A stretch of DNA of 64,000 nt from a virus (IMGVR_UViG_3300045988_102159:64001-128000), one strand, 5' to 3'; positions 688-35,584 are shown, numbered from the stretch's first letter. The notes: a model not told the origin generated them from the letters alone. Numbers and translations: made by a program.

Positions 688-3600
688 CTATTGATAATTC
701 GTAGTCATTACAGTACCATAGTAGTTAATCATACCCTCTACTGGCATTGCGGCAATACCAATACGCTCTGTCGATGTATTTCCATCAATCGTATCAATTG
801 ATGCAAATGCAAAATCATACCACTGATAATTATAGTATAATTTCAACTCATTGTTAATATTATACACGGTATTTAAAACAGGTTTTTTAATTTCATCTAT
901 TGAATTATACATTTGAGTGCCAGCGTCCATGCCAATAGCATTCCATGTCTCATCAAAGGAATCTTGCGGCTCTTGCTCGTCTTGAATAACTGAAACTGGT
1001 TGTTTCGTATCAGTATTATCTATTACAGTAAACCAATTAAGAGCTGTGGCATTAGTTGCGCCGACAGACGAATCAAGTCTAAATTCATTCTCTTGGAGAT
1101 ACTTTTTCTTATTTGTAAGTTTCATTCGTATACCCAAGAAACATATATCATCTACTGGAACGTCTCTCAGCATATGCAAAACGCCTGTTCCGCCGACAAG
1201 ATAATTCTTATATTCATCTTCATTATGATACTTGATACTAGCAACCGCATAAGGAGTAACATCTAAACAGATGCCTTTCCAATATTTCATGCGTTTACTA
1301 GAAAGCATAACATCACCATTCATTTGAATAAAATTATATTTATTTCTAATCTTATTGCCAAGATAAGCGTTAGGTTTAAATACGCCACTCTCCTGACCTA
1401 CAAGTGTGCGGTCAATTGATGCACCAGATACAGCTTCTTTTGCGCTAGAACGTTCTTTATAGCAAAGCGTGTATTCAATGGTAACAACATCGCCGATTTG
1501 GAAATAAAGACCAGTAACGTCTAGCTTGTTTGGAATTTGGTAATAACCACGTTCATTTACAAAGATATTATGATTACCATCGCTACCACGAGTAATAACG
1601 CCAAAATAATATCCACGCTGAACCTGATTTTGATTCAGCATTTCCGCAAGGCCATTTGTGTTTTCAGTAATTTCTGTTAGACCATCTGAATTTGCTTGAA
1701 ATGTATAATAGCGAGGTTTAGAATGATAAAAAATCTTAACATTTTTAAGAACAATATCCTCTGCTTTATATCCGGCTAAAACGCCACTATACTTCTTTGA
1801 TAGGGCATCGTTAATTTCATTCCTAATATCATTGTTATTTGTCACTGTCATCTTATACATCTGTGCAGGTTTAATTACTTCAATATAATCTTTAGGGTCA
1901 TCTTCTGAATCATGATTGCCGCCATTGATTGAACCAATCATTTTGCGGTTATAGATACCAAGAGTATCAAGAGTATCTAGAGAAGAAGCATCCTCAATCT
2001 CATAAACGGTAGCAGAAAAATTCCATAGCCTGCGGCCAACTGTAGAATTAGGTGTCAATGTAACATCTGTAAGCATTACAACCATTGAACCCTCTGCCAT
2101 TGAACGATATAGCTTAGGCTCACCATCATTTAACCATGCAATTAGCTTTTCACGGAATTCACGCTCGTAGAGCCAATCGTTTGTAGTAGTTGTTAGATAC
2201 TCCTGTGACGTTACACTAGAAATAGGTCCACTGGGATACTGATTTCCTCCAGTCTTTTCATAATTCTTAAAATCATTACGAATTAAATCTTTAACACCAG
2301 TTTCATCTTTATATTCTGAATATAGGTCTTTAAGAGTATCATTATTATGATGAATAAGTTCTGTCTTATTTGCAAATTCAGAATAAACATCAGACTCAGC
2401 ACTAATCAAACCTGAAATACTAAACTGCTTATAATTCAATACAGCATTTTCCGCAAACTTAGGATATTTACCACCAAGAGTATCAATCTTAGCTCTGTTG
2501 ACTACTGGCTTAAAGCTACTAACCTGATAATTATATCTTACCGCATATTGCTCCATACCACGAGAAAAATAAGCGTCATAGAATTGCGGCAAAACCACTT
2601 TTGACATAGTTGGTTTGGCAATAGACATTCCAGTAGAAGTAAGAGCTTCTACGCGATAACGATACCATGTCAGACTTTCTACAGTATTATCTACAATTGA
2701 AAAATCAATTTGCTGTAGCTTTGCGCTATAGATTGTCTCCCATTCTTTAAAGTTATCTTTATTAGATGCGCGTCTTACATATACAGATACACCGTCACTA
2801 AAAGAATATTCATTTTTAACCGAAACCTTAATTGACGCAGTTTCATCGTTGACTTCTGCGGCAATTGTAGGCTGCCATTCATCAGCACCAGTATATTCTC
2901 CAATTTGGAATTTATATTCTTTGCTAAGCTGATACTGATTCTTTGTGCGGCAAGTGATGCGGCATACATAATATGTACTAGTAGGGTCTGATGTAGAACC
3001 ATCCGCGCTGTTCTTTAAAGATGAAAAATCAATATTATATACAATATTATTTGGATTAAGATTTTCACCAGTGTAAATAGTGGGAGTAGAGAATAATACA
3101 TTATTTGAATCATCTAGAATGTCAAATTGATATGCTTCAAGTGTTTCGGTTTCAGTATTTAAAATTACTTCTTCGCCACTTTCATTTTTAGTGACAAAAA
3201 TAAGACCGCCCGCAATTTGCGTTAAGCCTTTATTAAAAGTCATATATGAATTGCCTGTATAGTTTTCAAATACAGACAGATAAATTTTAGGTTGGTGAAT
3301 AGGTCTAATTAGACAAACAGAAGACCATTCTGAAAAATATTGCGTATGTGATAAAAGATAACTATTCTTCTTTGCTTCATCATTAATAGGCACTTCATCA
3401 GTTCCATTATAGCTGTCAAATCGAATCTGAACTTTATAGAACTGATTCGTATTGAAAGCATTGCCCTCGATATAAGCGGTAGGTATCGTTACATAATACA
3501 TACCGCTTACTTTATCGAATTGTAAATCTTCAATTAGAATGCCCGAAAGTTTATTCAAGGCATTCTCATTATTAAGCTGATTTACGCAACTGACATGTAC

Positions 3601-3729
3601 GTGCTTAATCTCAGATGCAGAATTAAAAGAAGAAAGAGTAAAATACACAACAGCATCTTCTGTGTTTACAAAAGCATTTTGAAATGTTGAAACCACAGGT
3701 GGATACAGTGTACTAACGACTGTTGCCAT
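688..3729 (-). CDS. Large distal tail / fibre-like structural protein (1013 aa)
   Basis: Long ORF with AAGGAAG RBS, co-oriented downstream of the tape measure and the 1713-aa tail protein. Function by position only. Confidence 0.6.
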   Translation of the reverse strand: MATVVSTLYPPVVSTFQNAFVNTEDAVVYFTLSSFNSASEIKHVHVSCVNQLNNENALNKLSGILIEDLQFDKVSGMYYVTIPTAYIEGNAFNTNQFYKVQIRFDSYNGTDEVPINDEAKKNSYLLSHTQYFSEWSSVCLIRPIHQPKIYLSVFENYTGNSYMTFNKGLTQIAGGLIFVTKNESGEEVILNTETETLEAYQFDILDDSNNVLFSTPTIYTGENLNPNNIVYNIDFSSLKNSADGSTSDPTSTYYVCRITCRTKNQYQLSKEYKFQIGEYTGADEWQPTIAAEVNDETASIKVSVKNEYSFSDGVSVYVRRASNKDNFKEWETIYSAKLQQIDFSIVDNTVESLTWYRYRVEALTSTGMSIAKPTMSKVVLPQFYDAYFSRGMEQYAVRYNYQVSSFKPVVNRAKIDTLGGKYPKFAENAVLNYKQFSISGLISAESDVYSEFANKTELIHHNNDTLKDLYSEYKDETGVKDLIRNDFKNYEKTGGNQYPSGPISSVTSQEYLTTTTNDWLYEREFREKLIAWLNDGEPKLYRSMAEGSMVVMLTDVTLTPNSTVGRRLWNFSATVYEIEDASSLDTLDTLGIYNRKMIGSINGGNHDSEDDPKDYIEVIKPAQMYKMTVTNNNDIRNEINDALSKKYSGVLAGYKAEDIVLKNVKIFYHSKPRYYTFQANSDGLTEITENTNGLAEMLNQNQVQRGYYFGVITRGSDGNHNIFVNERGYYQIPNKLDVTGLYFQIGDVVTIEYTLCYKERSSAKEAVSGASIDRTLVGQESGVFKPNAYLGNKIRNKYNFIQMNGDVMLSSKRMKYWKGICLDVTPYAVASIKYHNEDEYKNYLVGGTGVLHMLRDVPVDDICFLGIRMKLTNKKKYLQENEFRLDSSVGATNATALNWFTVIDNTDTKQPVSVIQDEQEPQDSFDETWNAIGMDAGTQMYNSIDEIKKPVLNTVYNINNELKLYYNYQWYDFAFASIDTIDGNTSTERIGIAAMPVEGMINYYGTVMTTNYQ

Positions 3730-3745
3730 ATTTCACTCTTCCTTT

Positions 3746-4003
3746 CTATTGGTTAGAAGAACTTGTGTCAATCCAAATGCCAACATGAGTATTAGTAGGC
3801 TGTGTTTTGCCAGTATATACAAATGTTGTATTTTTCATGTAGTCCATGTAATTGTCAAAGAATTGGGCAAGAGAATAATTACCCTTATCTTTACGTGTGT
3901 CCACTACGTTGTCAAAGCCAACTCCAAATTCAGAGTAAGGCAAAGTAAGTGAACCATCTTTGGCCTTTTGACCAACCTTTTTAACAAAGGATTTTACTGC
4001 CAT
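3746..4003 (-). CDS. Small tail-module protein (85 aa), function unknown
   Basis: ORF track. Tightly packed between two giant tail genes, same strand. Confidence 0.55.
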   Translation of the reverse strand: MAVKSFVKKVGQKAKDGSLTLPYSEFGVGFDNVVDTRKDKGNYSLAQFFDNYMDYMKNTTFVYTGKTQPTNTHVGIWIDTSSSNQ

Positions 4004-4260
4004 TATTTAACTTCCTTCTCTTTAGGAGTGGCTTTTTGCTCCACTTGATTGACTTCTTGCTCCTGCTGTTGAGCTTTAGCCGCAACATCCATATCAATAG
4101 CTCTCAGCATTTCTCCTTGAACTTTTGGATAAAGACTGACAAGAATAGAATTAAGAGCATCTACCATAGCAGTAGCGCTAATTTCGTTTCTTAGCATAAA
4201 ATCGTCAATCATATCTTTTGCGAGAGCATGAACCCTCATACGTACTTCTAATTCGTTCAT
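4003..4260 (-). CDS. Small tail-module protein (85 aa), function unknown
   Basis: ORF track. AGGAGA-type RBS region. Its stop overlaps the start of the next gene. Confidence 0.55.
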   Translation of the reverse strand: MNELEVRMRVHALAKDMIDDFMLRNEISATAMVDALNSILVSLYPKVQGEMLRAIDMDVAAKAQQQEQEVNQVEQKATPKEKEVK

Positions 4261-17373: not shown

Positions 17374-17739
17374 CTTGTGTCTTAAACTCGGTCGTTAATC
17401 GAGTCCATATATAAATCCTATATGCTTCTCGTTTCCAAGAAGAAGAGACTATATTTTCTATAAAAATAGAACATTCTTTCGGATAGACTTCTATCCTATC
17501 AGAGCCAATCCTGATAGTCGTTGAACCTTTTACTAAATAGCAAAGTGGCTGCGGATTATCCAATTTTTATATCTTTTTACTATACCTAAGACATTACTCT
17601 TCGCCAATATTATATCACTATAATATTTTAGTAATATAAAACTCTAAGGATTTTCCCGCAATTTAATATTTTTCTTATAATTTAAATTATAAGCCCAATA
17701 TTTTCACTTATATATTTTAAGCAACAAGTAAAATCTTTT
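17374..17739 (-). mobile_element. Group I intron in tape measure gene (~366 nt, no ORF of note)
   Basis: Minus strand carries AAUUGCGGGAAA (rc 17653-17663), CCGCAGCC, GUUCAACGACUA (rc 17515-17526) and AAUAUAGUCUC. A G precedes exon 2 (GAACAAAUC). The 5' junction was chosen after GCCCCU. A P1 helix AAGCCC/GGGCUU is visible, but its register leaves +/-2 nt of doubt. Confidence 0.8.
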
Positions 17740-18708
17740 AGGGGCTTCTCGCGTAACGGATTCAATTGTCGCAATCTGGGCGTTTAATTGGTCTGTAGAA
17801 ACTCCAAGCGTAGCTGCCGCTGATGCAGCTTTCTGGGATGCTTCTGCCAACTCTCCAACATCCGCAGCAGAAATATTTGCTACGTTAGCCCAAGAGTCTA
17901 GTGCAGCATTAAGTTTATCAATATTATTATCAAGACCATAAGCATTCATGTATGCTGTGATTTGGTCCGACGTTGTAGCAGTGTCTTGTTGAGAGGCATT
18001 AGCTAATTTAGTTGACATCTCCGCAAGCTGCTGAGATTTGTTTAGGTCAAAACCTTGCTGGCCGAAGATAAGGGTACTATTCGTCATAGCAACAGTTGTA
18101 GAGCCAAGAGCCTTTGCAGCTTCATTAGCCTGCTTAGCATACTGAACCATCGAGTCACGTGAATAGTCAGTAACAAGCATAATTTGTGTCAGCGAATCAT
18201 CAAGGTCTTTTGCATATTCAACAGATTGACGAATAGAATCAGTAACGCCGTTAAAGGCGCTTGACATAATACCCCAACGGACTGTGTTGCCCATTGTGTT
18301 AAATAATTTATCTACCATTGAGCTGGTACTTTTGATACCAGTATCAATTTTACCCAATTGAGCAAGAACGTCTGTAAAGGCAATTTTACCAGTAGACTCT
18401 GCCATAGAAAATGAATTTTGCAGATTACGTAATGAAAGTCCACTCTCATTTAGCTGGCTAGTCAACTTTGTCATATCGAGCATTCCAATTTTAGTGTTAA
18501 AGCTCGAATTTAATGCTTTCTGAAATTTTTGAATATTGTTGATAGCCGCAGAAGCTTGCGTATTATCAATAATATCCCGAGACTGCATTTCCTTTAGCTG
18601 AACAGAAACTTTATTAAGCTCAGTCTGTAATTGAGTCAAACCAGAACGGTCTAATGTAGTTCGTAGATTATACTCAATAGTATTTGAATATTTACTAATG
18701 GTAATCAC
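17740..18708 (-). CDS. Tape measure protein, exon 1 (323 codons, GTG start)
   Basis: The ORF 17704-18708 makes sense up to ...IATIESVTREAP and then runs into intron sequence (KRFYLLLKIYK*). Coiled-coil N-terminus and TMP core motifs are present. The start is GTG 18708, preceded by a 13-codon uORF that holds the strong RBS. Confidence 0.75.
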
Positions 18709-21318: not shown

Positions 21319-21524
21319 TTATTCCCCCGCTGCTTCTGAGAAGACAGACTTAGAATACCAACTATCTACATCGGAATCCTTTGTGCGGCCATCGTGACCA
21401 AGGACATCCTTATTCTTGTAGTTGTGGGTCGTATCAGTCTTATCAACAACCTGTAGCGTAGCCATAACCTTCTTCTTCTTGTTGAACTTGGTGTAGGCAG
21501 GCATACAGTCAATAGTGAATGTAA
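21319..21524 (-). CDS. Major tail (tube-like) protein, exon 5
   Basis: Encodes (F)TFTIDCMPAYTKFNKKKKVMATLQVV...SEAAGE*. The frame is restored when it is joined to exon 4 after ...GDPST. An omega-G (21525) directly precedes it. Confidence 0.75.
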
Positions 21525-21781
21525 CATTATGTTATCTTATAGTTTCCTATAAGTTCAGACTATATCTTCACCTCTAATAATAGAGGGTTTTCCACTTCGC
21601 TTTGTTATAAAGCTACTCCATAAAGGATAGTCGTTGAACGTACTCGTTCGCTGCTGATTACCAGTTAAGGCTTCCAGCAATTCAAAAAAGATTTTACAAC
21701 GCATCGCTGCGCAGGTACCCGAACATCACTTTAAAAGACTACTAACAGACCAATTAAAGACTAATAGCAGACATTCTAGAC
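21525..21781 (-). mobile_element. Group I intron D of major tail gene (257 nt)
   Basis: P1 GUACCU/GGGUAC with U.G at the splice site. Also GAAUUGCUGGAAGCC, GUUCAACGACUA (rc 21628-21639), AGAUAUAGUCU (rc 21557-21568) and a terminal G. Confidence 0.85.
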
Positions 21782-22431
21782 AGGTACTTGGATCGCCATT
21801 GTTCGCCATAGAGAACGTAAAGTTACTCTGGATTTTACCACGAGGAATGACGAATTCGGCAGGAAGGTCTACGCCAGTCTCTTCATCACGGAAAAGTGTA
21901 GACGCTTCAATGTAATAGTAACCAGCGAAGTTCTCAGCATCAATCTGCATCTCATAGGCTTCATCGTAATGAACCTCATAGCAGTCAATGCGGACGGTAT
22001 CGCCAGCCTTTACAGCGGCATCTTGCTTGCTATCGCCGGGTTCATCGGCGGCAAGCTGGAAAGCGATAGTTTTACCTTCGGCTTGAATCTCACCATGATC
22101 GCCAAGGGTGGCGGCAGCTAGGGTCTTGCCATCATTGATAACAAAGACCTGCTTGTCGGTGACAGCAGAAAGGTAATTAGCTTGAGCACCAGCACTATCA
22201 AGAGTAACAGGATAGATAGGAGCTTCTTTTGTAACGATGATAGTCGCGCCATTGCGGTCTTCATCGGTTAACTTGGCGATAATCTTATCGCCAGAGGTTT
22301 CGGCAACCATATCATATGTAGCATGGACATAGATAGGAGTCTTATTTTCACCAGTTTTCTTACCGTGTACTAGACCAGCACCAGACAGCATAGCGAAACT
22401 GGTAGGACTCATTAGAGAGTCTTCAAGAGTG
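21782..22431 (-). CDS. Major tail (tube-like) protein, exon 4
   Basis: Corresponds to track ORF 21726-22412 plus in-frame upstream codons (..TLEDSL-MSPTSF...). The sense ends at ANNGDPST, and the ORF tail CLECLLLVFNW... is intron. An alternative 5' boundary is 22439. Confidence 0.75.
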
Positions 22432-22658
22432 CTTTTTAAACATATATACTTTCATATATAAACAGACTATATCTTATCTTTCGATTTTCTCACTTCCTTG
22501 CTTACAGCAAGTACACCTATACAGGTTAGTCGTTGAACCATTTTATTTGGCTGCGGATTGTCTAATTCTTATGGATTATTACTATAAAATAGTACCATAA
22601 AACTCTAAAGAGGTTCCCGCAATTCAAGAAATTTAATGACCCCCACATTTGTTAATTA
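22432..22658 (-). mobile_element. Group I intron C of major tail gene (~227 nt)
   Basis: P1 UGACCCU/GGGGUCA with U.G. Also AAUUGCGGGAAC, CCGCAGCC, GUUCAACGACUA (rc 22527-22538) and AGAUAUAGUCU (rc 22464-22475). Confidence 0.85.
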
Positions 22659-22679
22659 AGGGTCAGAGTCTTTTCACCA
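22659..22679 (-). CDS. Major tail protein, micro-exon 3 (~19-21 nt, GEKTLT)
   Basis: GGUGAAAAGACUCUGACCCU lies between the 3' end of intron B and the P1 of intron C. The frame from GGU through exons 4 and 5 is exactly 292 codons. The 5' boundary is uncertain (22676-22679). Confidence 0.6.
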
Positions 22680-22911
22680 CATTTGTATTATCTGTATCTT
22701 TATATATACATACAGCTTAGACTATATCTTTATTCTTTTAGAATATCTTGCACTTCGGATTGTAGCATCCTACACCTTAAAGGTTAGTCGTTGAACTTTA
22801 CTAAAAGTCTTAGCTGCGGATTCCCCTCGAAAGGGCTTTCCCGCAATTCACAAAATTTATTTCATTCTTAATGGTATACAAGCATTAAGCGGCCTGAGCA
22901 GTGAAGAAACT
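22680..22911 (-). mobile_element. Group I intron B of major tail gene (~230 nt, boundaries +/-6 nt)
   Basis: Contains AAUUGCGGGAAAGCC, CCGCAGCU, GUUCAACGACUA (rc 22785-22796) and AGAUAUAGUCU (rc 22709-22720). I could not draw a convincing P1 with a U.G pair, so both junctions are approximate. Confidence 0.75.
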
Positions 22912-22935
22912 TTCCCAGGCGATTAGACGAGGATT
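22912..22935 (-). CDS. Major tail protein, micro-exon 2 (~24-30 nt, NPRLIAWE..)
   Basis: AAUCCUCGUCUAAUCGCCUGGGAA starts directly after the omega-G of intron A (22936). It continues exon 1 in frame (..YAQGGKG-NPRLIAWE). The 3' boundary is uncertain (22906-22912). Confidence 0.6.
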
Positions 22936-23676
22936 CATAATATTCTAAATAGGTCGTTACTCTATTTATTGTTTACACAACTATATATTGCTATATAGAT
23001 TAGACTATATCTTATGCTAGATTACTAACATTTTCCTATTTCAAGCTACTTAGCTTTACTTCCTTGCGGAATAGTCGTTGAACTTTATTGAGTTATCCAC
23101 CTATAACCTCCTGTAGTATGACGTTTACCGCTACAAACAAGGCTAATTTTGCTAACACTACAACCTGTCTGACGATGCGCTTCTGACATACTTTTAAATT
23201 CACCAATAACATTTCCATTTAAATCAAGTTGGTAAACAGGAATCTCTGGATAACTTCCACTATTTACTTTATGCTGAACATAGCTATCATTCTTTTGACG
23301 AATAACCCAACGTAAATTTGTCAAATTATTGTCATCTCGAATTTCGTTTATATGATGACATTCCTCTCCTTCTAATGGAGGGCGAAGAAAAGTCTCAAGA
23401 ACCAAACGATGAATACGCCAATGTTTATAAGTGTTATTCTCTGTATTATATAACTTTACATACTGGTATCCATCTTTGTCATATTGAGGTTTCAACATAC
23501 GTTTAGTTGAAACAGTTCTAATTTCACCATGTTCATTTACCTCATAATAAGGAAAATCTTTTACAACTTTCCACATAAATAGCGCTCCAATCTTAGATGC
23601 TGATTGTCTTATAATACTTATATTATATCATAAGAGTTTCCAGCAGTCAAGGAAATTTTACAAGAGCAATCTATTT
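22936..23676 (-). mobile_element. Group I intron A of major tail gene (741 nt) carrying an HNH homing endonuclease ORF
   Basis: P1 AAGGGU/GCUCUU with U.G. Also UUGACUGCUGGAAAC, CAAUCAGCAUC, then the ORF, then GUUCAACGACUA (rc 23072-23083), AGAUAUAGUCU (rc 23002-23012) and a terminal G at 22936. Confidence 0.85.
23085..23576 (-). CDS. Intron-encoded HNH homing endonuclease (163 aa)
   Basis: N-terminal NUMOD4-like W..V.DFPYYEV...G.I motif, an H-N-H core (HRLVLETF...CHHINEIRDDNNLTNLRW) and a C-terminal HTH-like tail. Located inside the ribozyme core between the P6 and P7 elements. Confidence 0.8.
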   Translation of the reverse strand: MWKVVKDFPYYEVNEHGEIRTVSTKRMLKPQYDKDGYQYVKLYNTENNTYKHWRIHRLVLETFLRPPLEGEECHHINEIRDDNNLTNLRWVIRQKNDSYVQHKVNSGSYPEIPVYQLDLNGNVIGEFKSMSEAHRQTGCSVSKISLVCSGKRHTTGGYRWITQ

Positions 23677-23850
23677 ACCCTTGCCTCCTTGTGCATAAAC
23701 AGTAGTAGCAGCACCCTCAAGGCTAGAAGTCTTGGCAGTATCAATGTAAAGCATAGGCTGACCAGCATCGAAGTGCTGACCACCAAGGTCTACGGATGTT
23801 AGTGGCTTGAAGACCACATCACAAATCTCGCGCACACCAAAACGATTCAT
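23677..23850 (-). CDS. Major tail (tube-like) protein, exon 1 (58 codons)
   Basis: ATG 23850 with AAGGAG RBS, encoding MNRFGVREICDVVFKPL...TTVYAQGGKG. Too short for the ORF track because intron A brings an in-frame stop right after GGU. Confidence 0.75.
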
Positions 23851-23958
23851 AGATTTCTCCTTACGTTTAGGAATTTGTATACAGTTTCCTTAGTCATAGA
23901 AACATAACGCGCTAATTTCTATGTCTATTATATAAACGCGGCAAAACCACGATTATAC

Positions 23959-33472: not shown

Positions 33473-33829
33473 CTAATATCCTGCTGCTTTCATGATATAA
33501 TCATAGCTTAATCTTCCTTCATCATAATAAGGAATAGTGACTAATTTCAGATTATGTTCCAAGCAAAATTTTCTTTTTAACGTATCGTTATATTTTTGAT
33601 ATTTGAGGGCACGAGCACCACCATAACGACTGACAGGTACATAATGCTGTTCGCCTTGTGCTTCTATTAAAAAATCAATATTGCCGCAATCGTCAAAAAT
33701 ACAAAAATCAAATCTAAGATTTCTGCCAGACTTACCGACAAGTCCCTCAAATTCATACTCTTCCTCAAAAGGTAAACCTGCGTCTTTCAATATGTTATAT
33801 ATTTTTATTTCTAATAAAGAATCACGCAT
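33473..33829 (-). CDS. PD-(D/E)XK-fold nuclease (Vsr/DUF559-like, 118 aa), possible free-standing homing endonuclease
   Basis: Pattern ...RFDFCIF...IDFLIEAQGEQH.... Inserted between TerL and portal. Confidence 0.45.
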   Translation of the reverse strand: MRDSLLEIKIYNILKDAGLPFEEEYEFEGLVGKSGRNLRFDFCIFDDCGNIDFLIEAQGEQHYVPVSRYGGARALKYQKYNDTLKRKFCLEHNLKLVTIPYYDEGRLSYDYIMKAAGY

Positions 33830-35378: not shown

Positions 35379-35584
35379 CATAGCTGATTCATAAAATTAT
35401 AGACTATATCATTTTCTCCGAAGAGAAACTTTCCGCTTCGCCGCATAAGCAGCTACTCCCTTTTAGGATAGTCGTTGAACTTATAAATTAGATGCTGATT
35501 GCCAATAGATGGTGTCCCAGCAGTTCAAAAAGTTAGTTTTTCAAGGTATCGCTACCAAGCAGGACAATCAATTCGTCCTTTTGC
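35379..35584 (-). mobile_element. Group I intron in terL (~206 nt, boundaries +/-15 nt)
   Basis: Contains GAACUGCUGGGACACC, CAAUCAGCAUC, GUUCAACGACUA (rc 35469-35480) and GAUAUAGUCU (rc 35401-35410). Proposed P1 is GCAGAU/GU(C)CUGC with U.G, and omega-G is at 35379. Confidence 0.8.

Follow-up and report, generated by a model that had tools for sequence, protein, structure and literature searches.

Can a phage gene of little more than one kilobase (kb) hold four group I introns and still encode a complete structural protein? The question is raised by a stretch of viral DNA of 64,000 nucleotides (nt) (IMGVR_UViG_3300045988_102159:64001-128000), the whole of which we call the window. On its minus strand, at 21319-23850, five coding pieces are separated by four gaps, and an earlier inspection made without database searches (the sequence-only reading) had proposed that they form a single major tail gene interrupted by four group I introns. 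Our analysis bears this out: with a probability of about 0.87, the interrupted gene is the tail-tube gene (major tail, YomU-type) of an SPbeta-like human-gut phage of about 142 kb, and its four introns are group I introns of the phage type, IA. Hits to the Rfam group I model, an ungapped reconstruction of 1074 nt and covarying P1 and P10 helices carry this conclusion.

The gene starts with an ATG at 23850, 6 nt downstream of a ribosome-binding site, AAGGAG (23857-23862, minus strand, read from the sequence), and its frame stays open for 58 codons up to a GGT at 23677; the start, the AAGGAG and the GGT/AAATAG junction at 23677 are all as first read. Once joined, the five exons make 1074 nt that encode a product of 357 amino acids (aa), and excision of the gaps restores the reading frame exactly. 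Compared with an intron-less allele from a related locus (L001), the spliced coding sequence (CDS) is ungapped over its 1074 nt, with 89 substitutions and 98% aa identity; that so many nucleotide changes leave the protein so similar indicates purifying selection on the gene. A search of 5.8 billion proteins returned thousands of uninterrupted homologues of the spliced product, the best of which (P0001) has 357 aa, is 98% identical and carries PF27173 (YomU_Tube, the SPbeta-type tail tube). The sequence-only reading would have been refuted by homologues in which the pieces are separate genes with their own starts; the homologues are single genes instead, and alignment with the intron-less allele fixes the exon borders.

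What the gene encodes follows several independent annotations. In precomputed Pfam annotation, PF27173 is found in P0001, in 119 further homologues and in a 228-aa open reading frame (ORF) that gene callers predict separately from exon 4; the spliced protein had no Pfam match in a model set that lacks PF27173, and a sequence search against solved structures gave no match either. A family of virion structural proteins (phrog_2729, 'virion structural protein') is matched in one stretch across all the junctions (E 4e-52, residues 1-310), the annotation of Bacillus phage homologues is either tail tube or major tail protein, and the gene lies between a YomW-like gene on one side and the tape-measure gene on the other. 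The PF27173 match across the protein, together with this position in the tail module, places the product among the YomU-type tail tubes. The region is 100% identical over 6.7 kb to a human-gut scaffold of 142.6 kb, and the fragmented allele is found on many independent contigs: the exact product of exon 1 is present on 90 of them, and the clusters of the exon 4 protein and of an HNH protein encoded in the first intron have some 80 members each.

Three observations concern the surroundings of the tube gene. Its nearest named relative, Phage Phass-1 (L077, OQ749652.1), is listed in the 'Caudoviricetes code 15 clade' (TAG recoding) and has its tube homologue annotated as a single CDS of 1617 nt; the window has long ORFs when read in the standard code. 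In another relative (L166, 6901-6970), a sub-threshold Rfam match to mir-1255 on both strands, a short way downstream of the tube gene, is almost certainly a palindromic, terminator-like hairpin and not a microRNA. No tRNA genes were found within the 64-kb window.

All exons and introns lie on the minus strand. Exon 1 (23677-23850, 174 nt, codons 1-58) ends in AAGGGU and aligns with L001 3852-4174. It is followed by intron A (22936-23676, 741 nt), which has an ORF in its P6 loop region and ends at G22936. Exon 2 (22913-22935, 23 nt, AATCCTCGTCTAATCGCCTGGGA) is identical at 23 of 23 positions to L001 4175-4197, and intron B (22680-22912, 233 nt, no ORF), ending at G22680, separates it from exon 3 (22659-22679, 21 nt, TGGTGAAAAGACTCTGACCCT), which aligns with L001 4198-4216. 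After intron C (22432-22658, 227 nt, no ORF, ending at G22432) comes exon 4 (21782-22431, 650 nt), with 92.9% nt identity to L001 4220-4854. Intron D (21525-21781, 257 nt), also without an ORF, ends at G21525, and exon 5 (21319-21524, 206 nt including the TAA stop) is 93.2% identical in nt to L001 from 4869 onwards.

The borders of the two micro-exons were fixed by aligning the DNA with the intron-less allele. Two such exons had indeed been recognised from the sequence, with lengths of 24 and 20 nt, each one base off at its border. That first placement, GAA/GGT, by which the last intron base would be U or C, was dropped for GA/Y, which gives a terminal G in all loci and the 23/23 nt match to the intron-less allele. 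Joined to its neighbours, exon 3 restores ...W-D-G-E-K-T-L-T-L..., and all homologues read W-D-G-E-K; the W-E-G-E-K first proposed at this join is corrected accordingly by the intron-less allele, while the count of 876 nt, or 292 codons, from the GGT of exon 3 to the stop was accurate. The four predicted ligated junctions are GCAAGGGT/AATCCTCG, GCCTGGGA/TGGTGAAA, CTGACCCT/CACTCTTG and AAGTACCT/TTACATTC; in forms specific to this allele they would read GGAGGCAAGGGT/AATCCTCGTCTA, AATCGCCTGGGA/TGGTGAAAAGAC, GACTCTGACCCT/CACTCTTGAAGA and GATCCAAGTACCT/TTACATTCACTA, flanking single-nucleotide polymorphisms telling it apart from its intron-less siblings (CCAAGTACCT versus CCGTCAACAT). The peptides predicted to span the junctions are GGKGNPR, IAWDGEK, TLTLTLEDSLMSPTSFAMLSGAGLVHGK and IQSNFTFSMANNGDPSTFTFTIDCMPAYTK. 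In unspliced RNA, in-frame stops lie 1, 9, 2 and 18 codons beyond the 5' splice sites of introns A, B, C and D, respectively.

Are the four gaps really group I introns? Three of them score above the 50-bit gathering score of the Rfam model RF00028: intron B (80.1 bits, E 1e-18, 22698-22916), intron D (76.1 bits, 21536-21767) and intron C (61.0 bits, E 5e-13, 22443-22668). Intron A, which its ORF splits, gives 41.0 bits for the 3' part (E 6.6e-9) and 14.7 bits for the 5', P4-P6 half; without the ORF it is 83% identical to an ORF-less intron inserted at the same codon in locus L019, which scores 70.2 bits. These scores and the likeness of intron A to its L019 counterpart establish all four gaps as group I introns and exclude chance. 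A covariance-model search of the gaps had been suggested by the sequence-only reading as a way to refute it, and the gaps passed. A motif scan found the core strings named earlier in every gap (AAUUGCGGGAA or CUGCUGGAA for P4, GUUCAACGACUA for P7 and AGAUAUAGUC for P7'), and the conserved catalytic core (P3-P9, with its P4-P6 and P3-P7-P8 domains) is present in each intron, as are a terminal guanosine (omega G) and a P10 pairing with the 3' exon.

The core had also been likened to that of Tetrahymena. The strings belong to the general group I consensus, however, and the peripheral structure points elsewhere: RNAalifold on three site-B introns predicts two hairpins between GACUA and P3' (columns 146-157 and 158-169) with compensatory changes, and the same two-hairpin layout is visible in an alignment of all six introns of the window. 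On these predicted hairpins, of the P7.1/P7.2 type, we assign the introns to subgroup IA and not to the IC1 of Tetrahymena. Pairwise identity among the four is only 51-59%, and they therefore represent distinct lineages. In a collection of 50,697 phage records, megablast found nothing like the region beyond a 34-nt chance match, and blastn in distant mode only core fragments of 60-110 nt in Bacillus jumbo phages, with no match to Twort; the introns therefore have no close annotated relative.

The helices that define the splice sites can be drawn for each intron. For introns A, C and D, P1 has the U.G wobble at the cleavage site and a G precedes the next exon (2, 4 and 5), as had been noted. 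In intron A, the internal guide sequence (IGS) GCUCUU (23667-23662) pairs with AAGGGU, and directly adjacent to it GAUU (23671-23668) forms a P10 of 4 base pairs (bp) with AAUC of exon 2. In intron C, the IGS GGGGUCA (22643-22637) pairs with UGACCCU, and GUG (22646-22644) forms a 3-bp P10 with CAC of exon 4; this P10 covaries, being CAC/GUG here, CAGUC/GACUG in L019 and AAC/GUU in L033. In intron D, the IGS GGGUAC (21720-21715) pairs with GUACCU, its P10 has 4 bp and is offset by 2 nt, and compensatory changes occur in P1 at the same site in relatives (CCACCU/GGGUGG in L164, CGACAU/GUGUCG in L167).

Five points weigh against this interpretation. Intron A is under the Rfam gathering score here, because its ORF splits it. 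In intron D, the loop closed by P1 is unusually long, at about 55 nt. The U.G wobble is missing at the cleavage site of intron B, where every site-B locus has an A at position -1. Splicing of all four introns is predicted from sequence alone. Lastly, splicing may depend on host or phage factors, and the assignment of a host from bins of metagenome-assembled genomes is weak. Concerning the second point, the P1 loop of intron D (21722-21781, minus strand) contains a direct repeat (UUAGUCUUUAA / GUAGUCUUUUAA), and P1 of the same intron in L164 and L167 closes within about 20 nt; the loop therefore looks like a local insertion or duplication.

Intron B requires a closer look, as its splice site is the most unusual detail of the locus. 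Its P1 pairs GCCUGGG with CUCAGGC (22898-22892), placing the last exon base, A22913, opposite the guide G22899, and its P10 pairs UUCACUG (22905-22899) with UGGUGAA of exon 3 over 7 bp. Three other P1 variants are found at site B, in L015 and L033, L031 and L164 (GCUUGGG/CUCAAGC, GGCUGGG/CCCAGCC and GGCUGGG/CUCAGCC), and the A at -1 is kept across all four covarying versions. RNAalifold on the site-B introns recovers P1, P2, P3, P4/P6, P5, P8 and P9, with 9 compensatory pairs. We still file intron B as a group I intron, with a non-canonical splice site, since all its other features are in place. Literature searches turned up no natural group I intron with an A at -1, which is absence of evidence only.

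One may ask whether intron B uses canonical bases after all, being cut after U22917 (GCCU/GGGA) and ligated after G22678. This pair of sites is in frame, the U at -1 and the G at the 3' end of the intron are present in all site-B loci, and the U lies within the covarying P1 helix. Both bases, however, are fixed by conserved Trp and Gly codons, so that their presence is not evidence. The product would read ...NPRLIA-C-EKTLT..., from two micro-exons of 19 nt, and would lose the W-D/E-G that all 75 loci share, even at identities as low as 44%; moreover, the U pairs with A and not with G, and the resulting P10 (G-C, U x U, G-C) would compare badly with the 7 bp of UGGUGAA/UUCACUG. The preferred junction, by contrast, matches the intron-less allele at 23/23 nt. 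We consider canonical cleavage at this site improbable. The two possibilities predict different complementary DNAs across intron B, GCCTGGGATGGTGAA (GGGA/TGGT) for the preferred junction and ATCGCCTGTGAAAAG (GCCT/GTGAA) for the canonical one.

A more radical view of the same splice site is that the gene has lost its function: one or more of the introns, B being the likeliest, would be unable to splice, and the DNA would come from a defective phage or a decaying prophage. The non-canonical 5' splice site invites this view, and the splicing itself is deduced on paper. Yet none of the five exons is damaged or out of frame, the protein keeps 98% aa identity despite 89 nt differences from the intron-less allele, the A at -1 is retained in four compensated P1 variants in phages of 120-147 kb, and the fragmented allele recurs on dozens of contigs. 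A dead gene is therefore very improbable, the least credible of the alternatives we weighed. Returning to a functional intron B with a non-canonical site, we would give even odds to a joint proposal: that the site-B lineage cleaves after adenosine, with the A either opposed to G or bulged between adjoining P1 and P10 helices, instead of at the U.G wobble that is nearly universal, and that, of all group I intron targets described in viruses, the YomU-type tube gene of these gut phages is the densest.

Two observations relate to the site-B lineage. In a distant clade that reads W-E-G-E-K (L069, L070 and L072, ~1900-3000), a relative of the B lineage sits 3-4 nt downstream of site B, at a site that we call B'; some 110 nt separate it from its P1 partner, and its 5' junction falls after G (which keeps Glu) or after A (which changes Glu to Lys), never after U. 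Searching viral contigs for the 15-mer ATTTTGTGAATTGCG gave 75 loci, 70 of which were chance matches in sequence of no relation, and no new site-B introns.

How would such short exons be spliced? Following established group I chemistry, each intron would fold into a ribozyme after transcription; P1 would form between its guide sequence and the final 6-8 bases of the exon before it, an external guanosine would cleave there, and the freed exon would then attack the bond after the last G of the intron, the downstream exon being held by P10. Removal of all four introns would yield the 1074-nt mRNA and the 357-aa tube protein. Exons 2 and 3 are almost entirely guide-pairing sequence: exon 2 carries the P10 segment of intron A (AAUC, 4 nt) and the P1 segment of intron B (GCCUGGG plus A, 8 nt), and exon 3 the P10 segment of intron B (7 nt) and the P1 segment of intron C (7 nt). 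These segments do not overlap within the micro-exons, and the four guide sequences all differ, from which we infer that each intron may splice without the others, that no fixed order of removal is needed, and that exon skipping should be rare. Skipping of exon 2 would shift the frame, and that of exon 3 would delete seven residues. The rare skipping expected here agrees with experiments in which distinct splice-site recognition elements favour exon inclusion (PMC10136302).

Why, then, should one gene carry so many introns? The distribution of introns in relatives, examined in 75 IMG/VR loci and six metagenome loci, bears directly on this question. Most of the 75 IMG/VR loci are intron-less, including alleles 98-99% identical, and 15 are interrupted. 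Relatives have 0 to 5 introns per tube gene, at nine or more insertion sites that fall in two patches of the gene. In the coordinates of the spliced CDS, the nine sites counted are Z (after nt 26, that is, after codon 9), A' (after nt 165, about 9 nt upstream of site A), A (after nt 174), B (after nt 197), B' (at about nt 200-201), C (after nt 218), D3 (after nt 855), D2 (after nt 864) and D (after nt 868). Thus, L033 has four introns (A'+B+C+D3), L167 (7103-9672) has five (Z+A+B+C+D), and L164 (~3635-4095) also has five (Z+A+B+D3+D), with a 13-nt exon, GACCCATCCACCT, between D3 and D. The site-Z intron has no Rfam match at E 1e-3, yet its P1 has the U.G pair, the strings of P4/P6 and P7 are present, and its last base is G. 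At site A' the cleavage pair itself covaries, from GGGU/GCCC (U.G) in L016 and L017 to GGGC/ACCC (C.A) in L014, L021, L022 and L033, which looks like a natural exchange of U.G for its wobble isostere C.A at a group I 5' splice site.

The nine sites lie, on average, at the 88th percentile of local nucleotide conservation among 43 distinct intron-less alleles (cluster-preserving permutation, P = 0.003). Long versions of the introns at A', B, D2 and D3 encode HNH_3/NUMOD proteins, and those at site C a different nuclease (phrog_9084/559/7140). Introns B, C and D of the window are ORF-less descendants of lineages that have endonuclease genes in sibling phages. We conclude that the introns are mobile selfish elements, and that their pattern is the signature of homing elements aimed at conserved DNA: their build-up in this gene would be due to homing endonucleases, whose targets are the best-conserved DNA of an essential gene.

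The sequence-only reading had gone further, proposing that the order and efficiency of splicing could gate tail production. Slow, conditional or ordered splicing would time or limit tail-tube synthesis, and there is some ground for the idea: the host gene is a late structural gene whose product is needed in high copy number, unspliced RNA would end translation early at the in-frame stops, and conditional splicing has precedents in psbA of cyanophage S-PM2 and in flagellin genes of thermophiles. However, phages with tube proteins 98-99% identical do without these introns (L001-L013, L018, L024, L032), which leaves the proposal unsupported, and others hold different subsets at different sites, the pattern of selfish, dispensable elements. 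We found no conserved regulatory feature in the introns. Their distribution and the conservation of their sites therefore argue against a conserved regulatory role, which we consider unlikely.

The selfish reading draws further support from the ORF that intron A still carries. This ORF (23085-23576, minus strand, 163 aa, wholly inside the intron) has an HNH motif and NUMOD modules and is intron-encoded, and is on these grounds a predicted homing endonuclease of the I-HmuI type. Pfam matches are NUMOD4 (E 1e-8), HNH_3 (E 5e-7) and NUMOD1 (E 7e-9), with a weak match to I-HmuI_NUMOD-like; phrog_59 is matched at E 2e-34. The only match in the Protein Data Bank is 1U3E ('HNH homing endonuclease', E 1e-10), which we take to be I-HmuI. 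The cluster of this protein at 90% identity has 85 members, and the candidate intron-less target at site A, lying around 4165-4185 in L001, is GGCAAGGGT/AATCCTCG.

If this endonuclease and its relatives cut the intron-less tube gene of a co-infecting phage, the intron load could be partly adaptive, as a weapon in competition. The intron-encoded HNH endonuclease of phage PhiPA3 is reported to interfere with a co-infecting relative (PMC11620839). Alleles with and without introns, whose tube proteins are 93-99% identical, are present in the same metagenome project (IMG 3300045988), and synonymous differences are concentrated beside the intron D junction, which fits co-conversion or changes in a recognition site. 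Against this, three of the four introns here have lost their endonuclease gene. The proposal is compatible with homing of selfish introns and would only add a benefit to it; it is possible, and we hold it tentatively.

Is the locus, then, as exceptional for a bacterial virus as it had first been said to be? This was overstated, in view of the three introns and 23-nt exon of orf142 in phage Twort and of the five introns and 13-nt exon in relatives of the present phage. In Twort orf142 (Landthaler & Shub 1999, as summarised in PMC10136302 and PMC11878797), there are three IA2 introns, I1-I3, and a skippable 23-nt exon; the gene was only later understood to encode a tail tube. The likeness is close, with several phage-type IA introns in one small tail-tube gene and a 23-nt exon between two of them. 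The differences are that there are four introns here and not three, and two consecutive micro-exons (23 and 21 nt); that the host protein is the YomU_Tube of an SPbeta-like phage, whereas Twort orf142 encodes the tube of a Herelleviridae myovirus; and that the introns here are 51-59% identical, whereas I2 and I3 of Twort are described as highly similar and as skipping the exon between them.

Other phage systems share single traits with this one. The SPO1 DNA-polymerase intron, home of I-HmuI, is likewise a group I intron in a phage gene with an HNH/NUMOD ORF in a peripheral loop; the gene that it interrupts serves replication, whereas the present one is structural, and the identity of the intron A ORF to I-HmuI is modest and confined to the N-terminal 100 residues. 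The IA2 introns of T4 (td, nrdB, nrdD) have the same core strings, P7.1/P7.2 between P7 and P3', an ORF in a peripheral loop and in-frame stops soon after the 5' splice site. They occur one per gene, however, with U.G at every 5' site, whereas intron B has an A at -1. The 3' tail ...ACAUAAUG/ presumably also resembles that of T4 introns. In Bastillevirinae, a single essential gene can hold as many as three group I introns (PMC11878797), and gut 'Jug' jumbo phages have a mean of 18.5 introns per genome, with splicing supported by metatranscriptomes (PMC12880540). Versions with and without endonuclease coexist there as they do here (PMC11878797, PMC12880540). Both studies deal mainly with genes for polymerase, terminase and ribonucleotide reductase, whereas a tail gene is concerned here, with 4 introns (5 in relatives) in about 1.07 kb and exons of 13-23 nt. 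What we describe is therefore a known phenomenon in a denser case.

Two more group I introns are found elsewhere in the window. A fifth, of about 360 nt, lies in the tape-measure gene (17384-17743, minus strand; Rfam 41.2 bits), with the core strings AAAUUGCGGGAAAA, AAUCCGCAGCC, GGUUCAACGACUA and AAAUAUAGUC; the ORFs at 18708-17704 and 17319-9544 correspond to a single gene of 2910 aa in the intron-less L001, and the junction is ambiguous within 4 nt. A sixth lies in the gene of the large terminase subunit (35382-35584, minus strand, YonF-like), at 47.2 bits, just under the gathering score; the two halves of the gene, ORFs 36049-35552 and 35381-33957, correspond to successive segments of phrog_15503, and the annotation in relatives is terminase large subunit. 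Directly downstream of this split gene, a free-standing ORF of 118 aa (33473-33829, minus strand) matches PHROGs annotated as 'homing endonuclease' or 'intron encoded nuclease' (phrog_9084, E 3e-25; also 559 and 7140), and its nuclease domain is the same as that found inside the site-C introns of relatives.

The locus raises the number of group I introns recorded in a single phage gene from three (Twort orf142) to four, and to five in close relatives, and it shows that a structural gene that is both essential and highly expressed tolerates exons of 13-23 nt, nearly the whole length of which is guide-pairing sequence. Gene callers split this gene into four or five unrelated small ORFs, with the consequence that the tail-tube genes of a common gut phage clade are systematically missed in annotation. 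For ribozyme biology, the site-B lineage, with its A at -1, and the site-A' lineage, with its U.G and C.A pairs, are natural cleavage-site variants that can be tested directly; if site-B introns do cleave after A, the clade would be a natural test set for the tolerance of the wobble receptor towards other cleavage-site pairs. The mosaic of introns among nearly identical genomes is, in addition, a ready system in which to measure homing and intron-mediated competition between phages.

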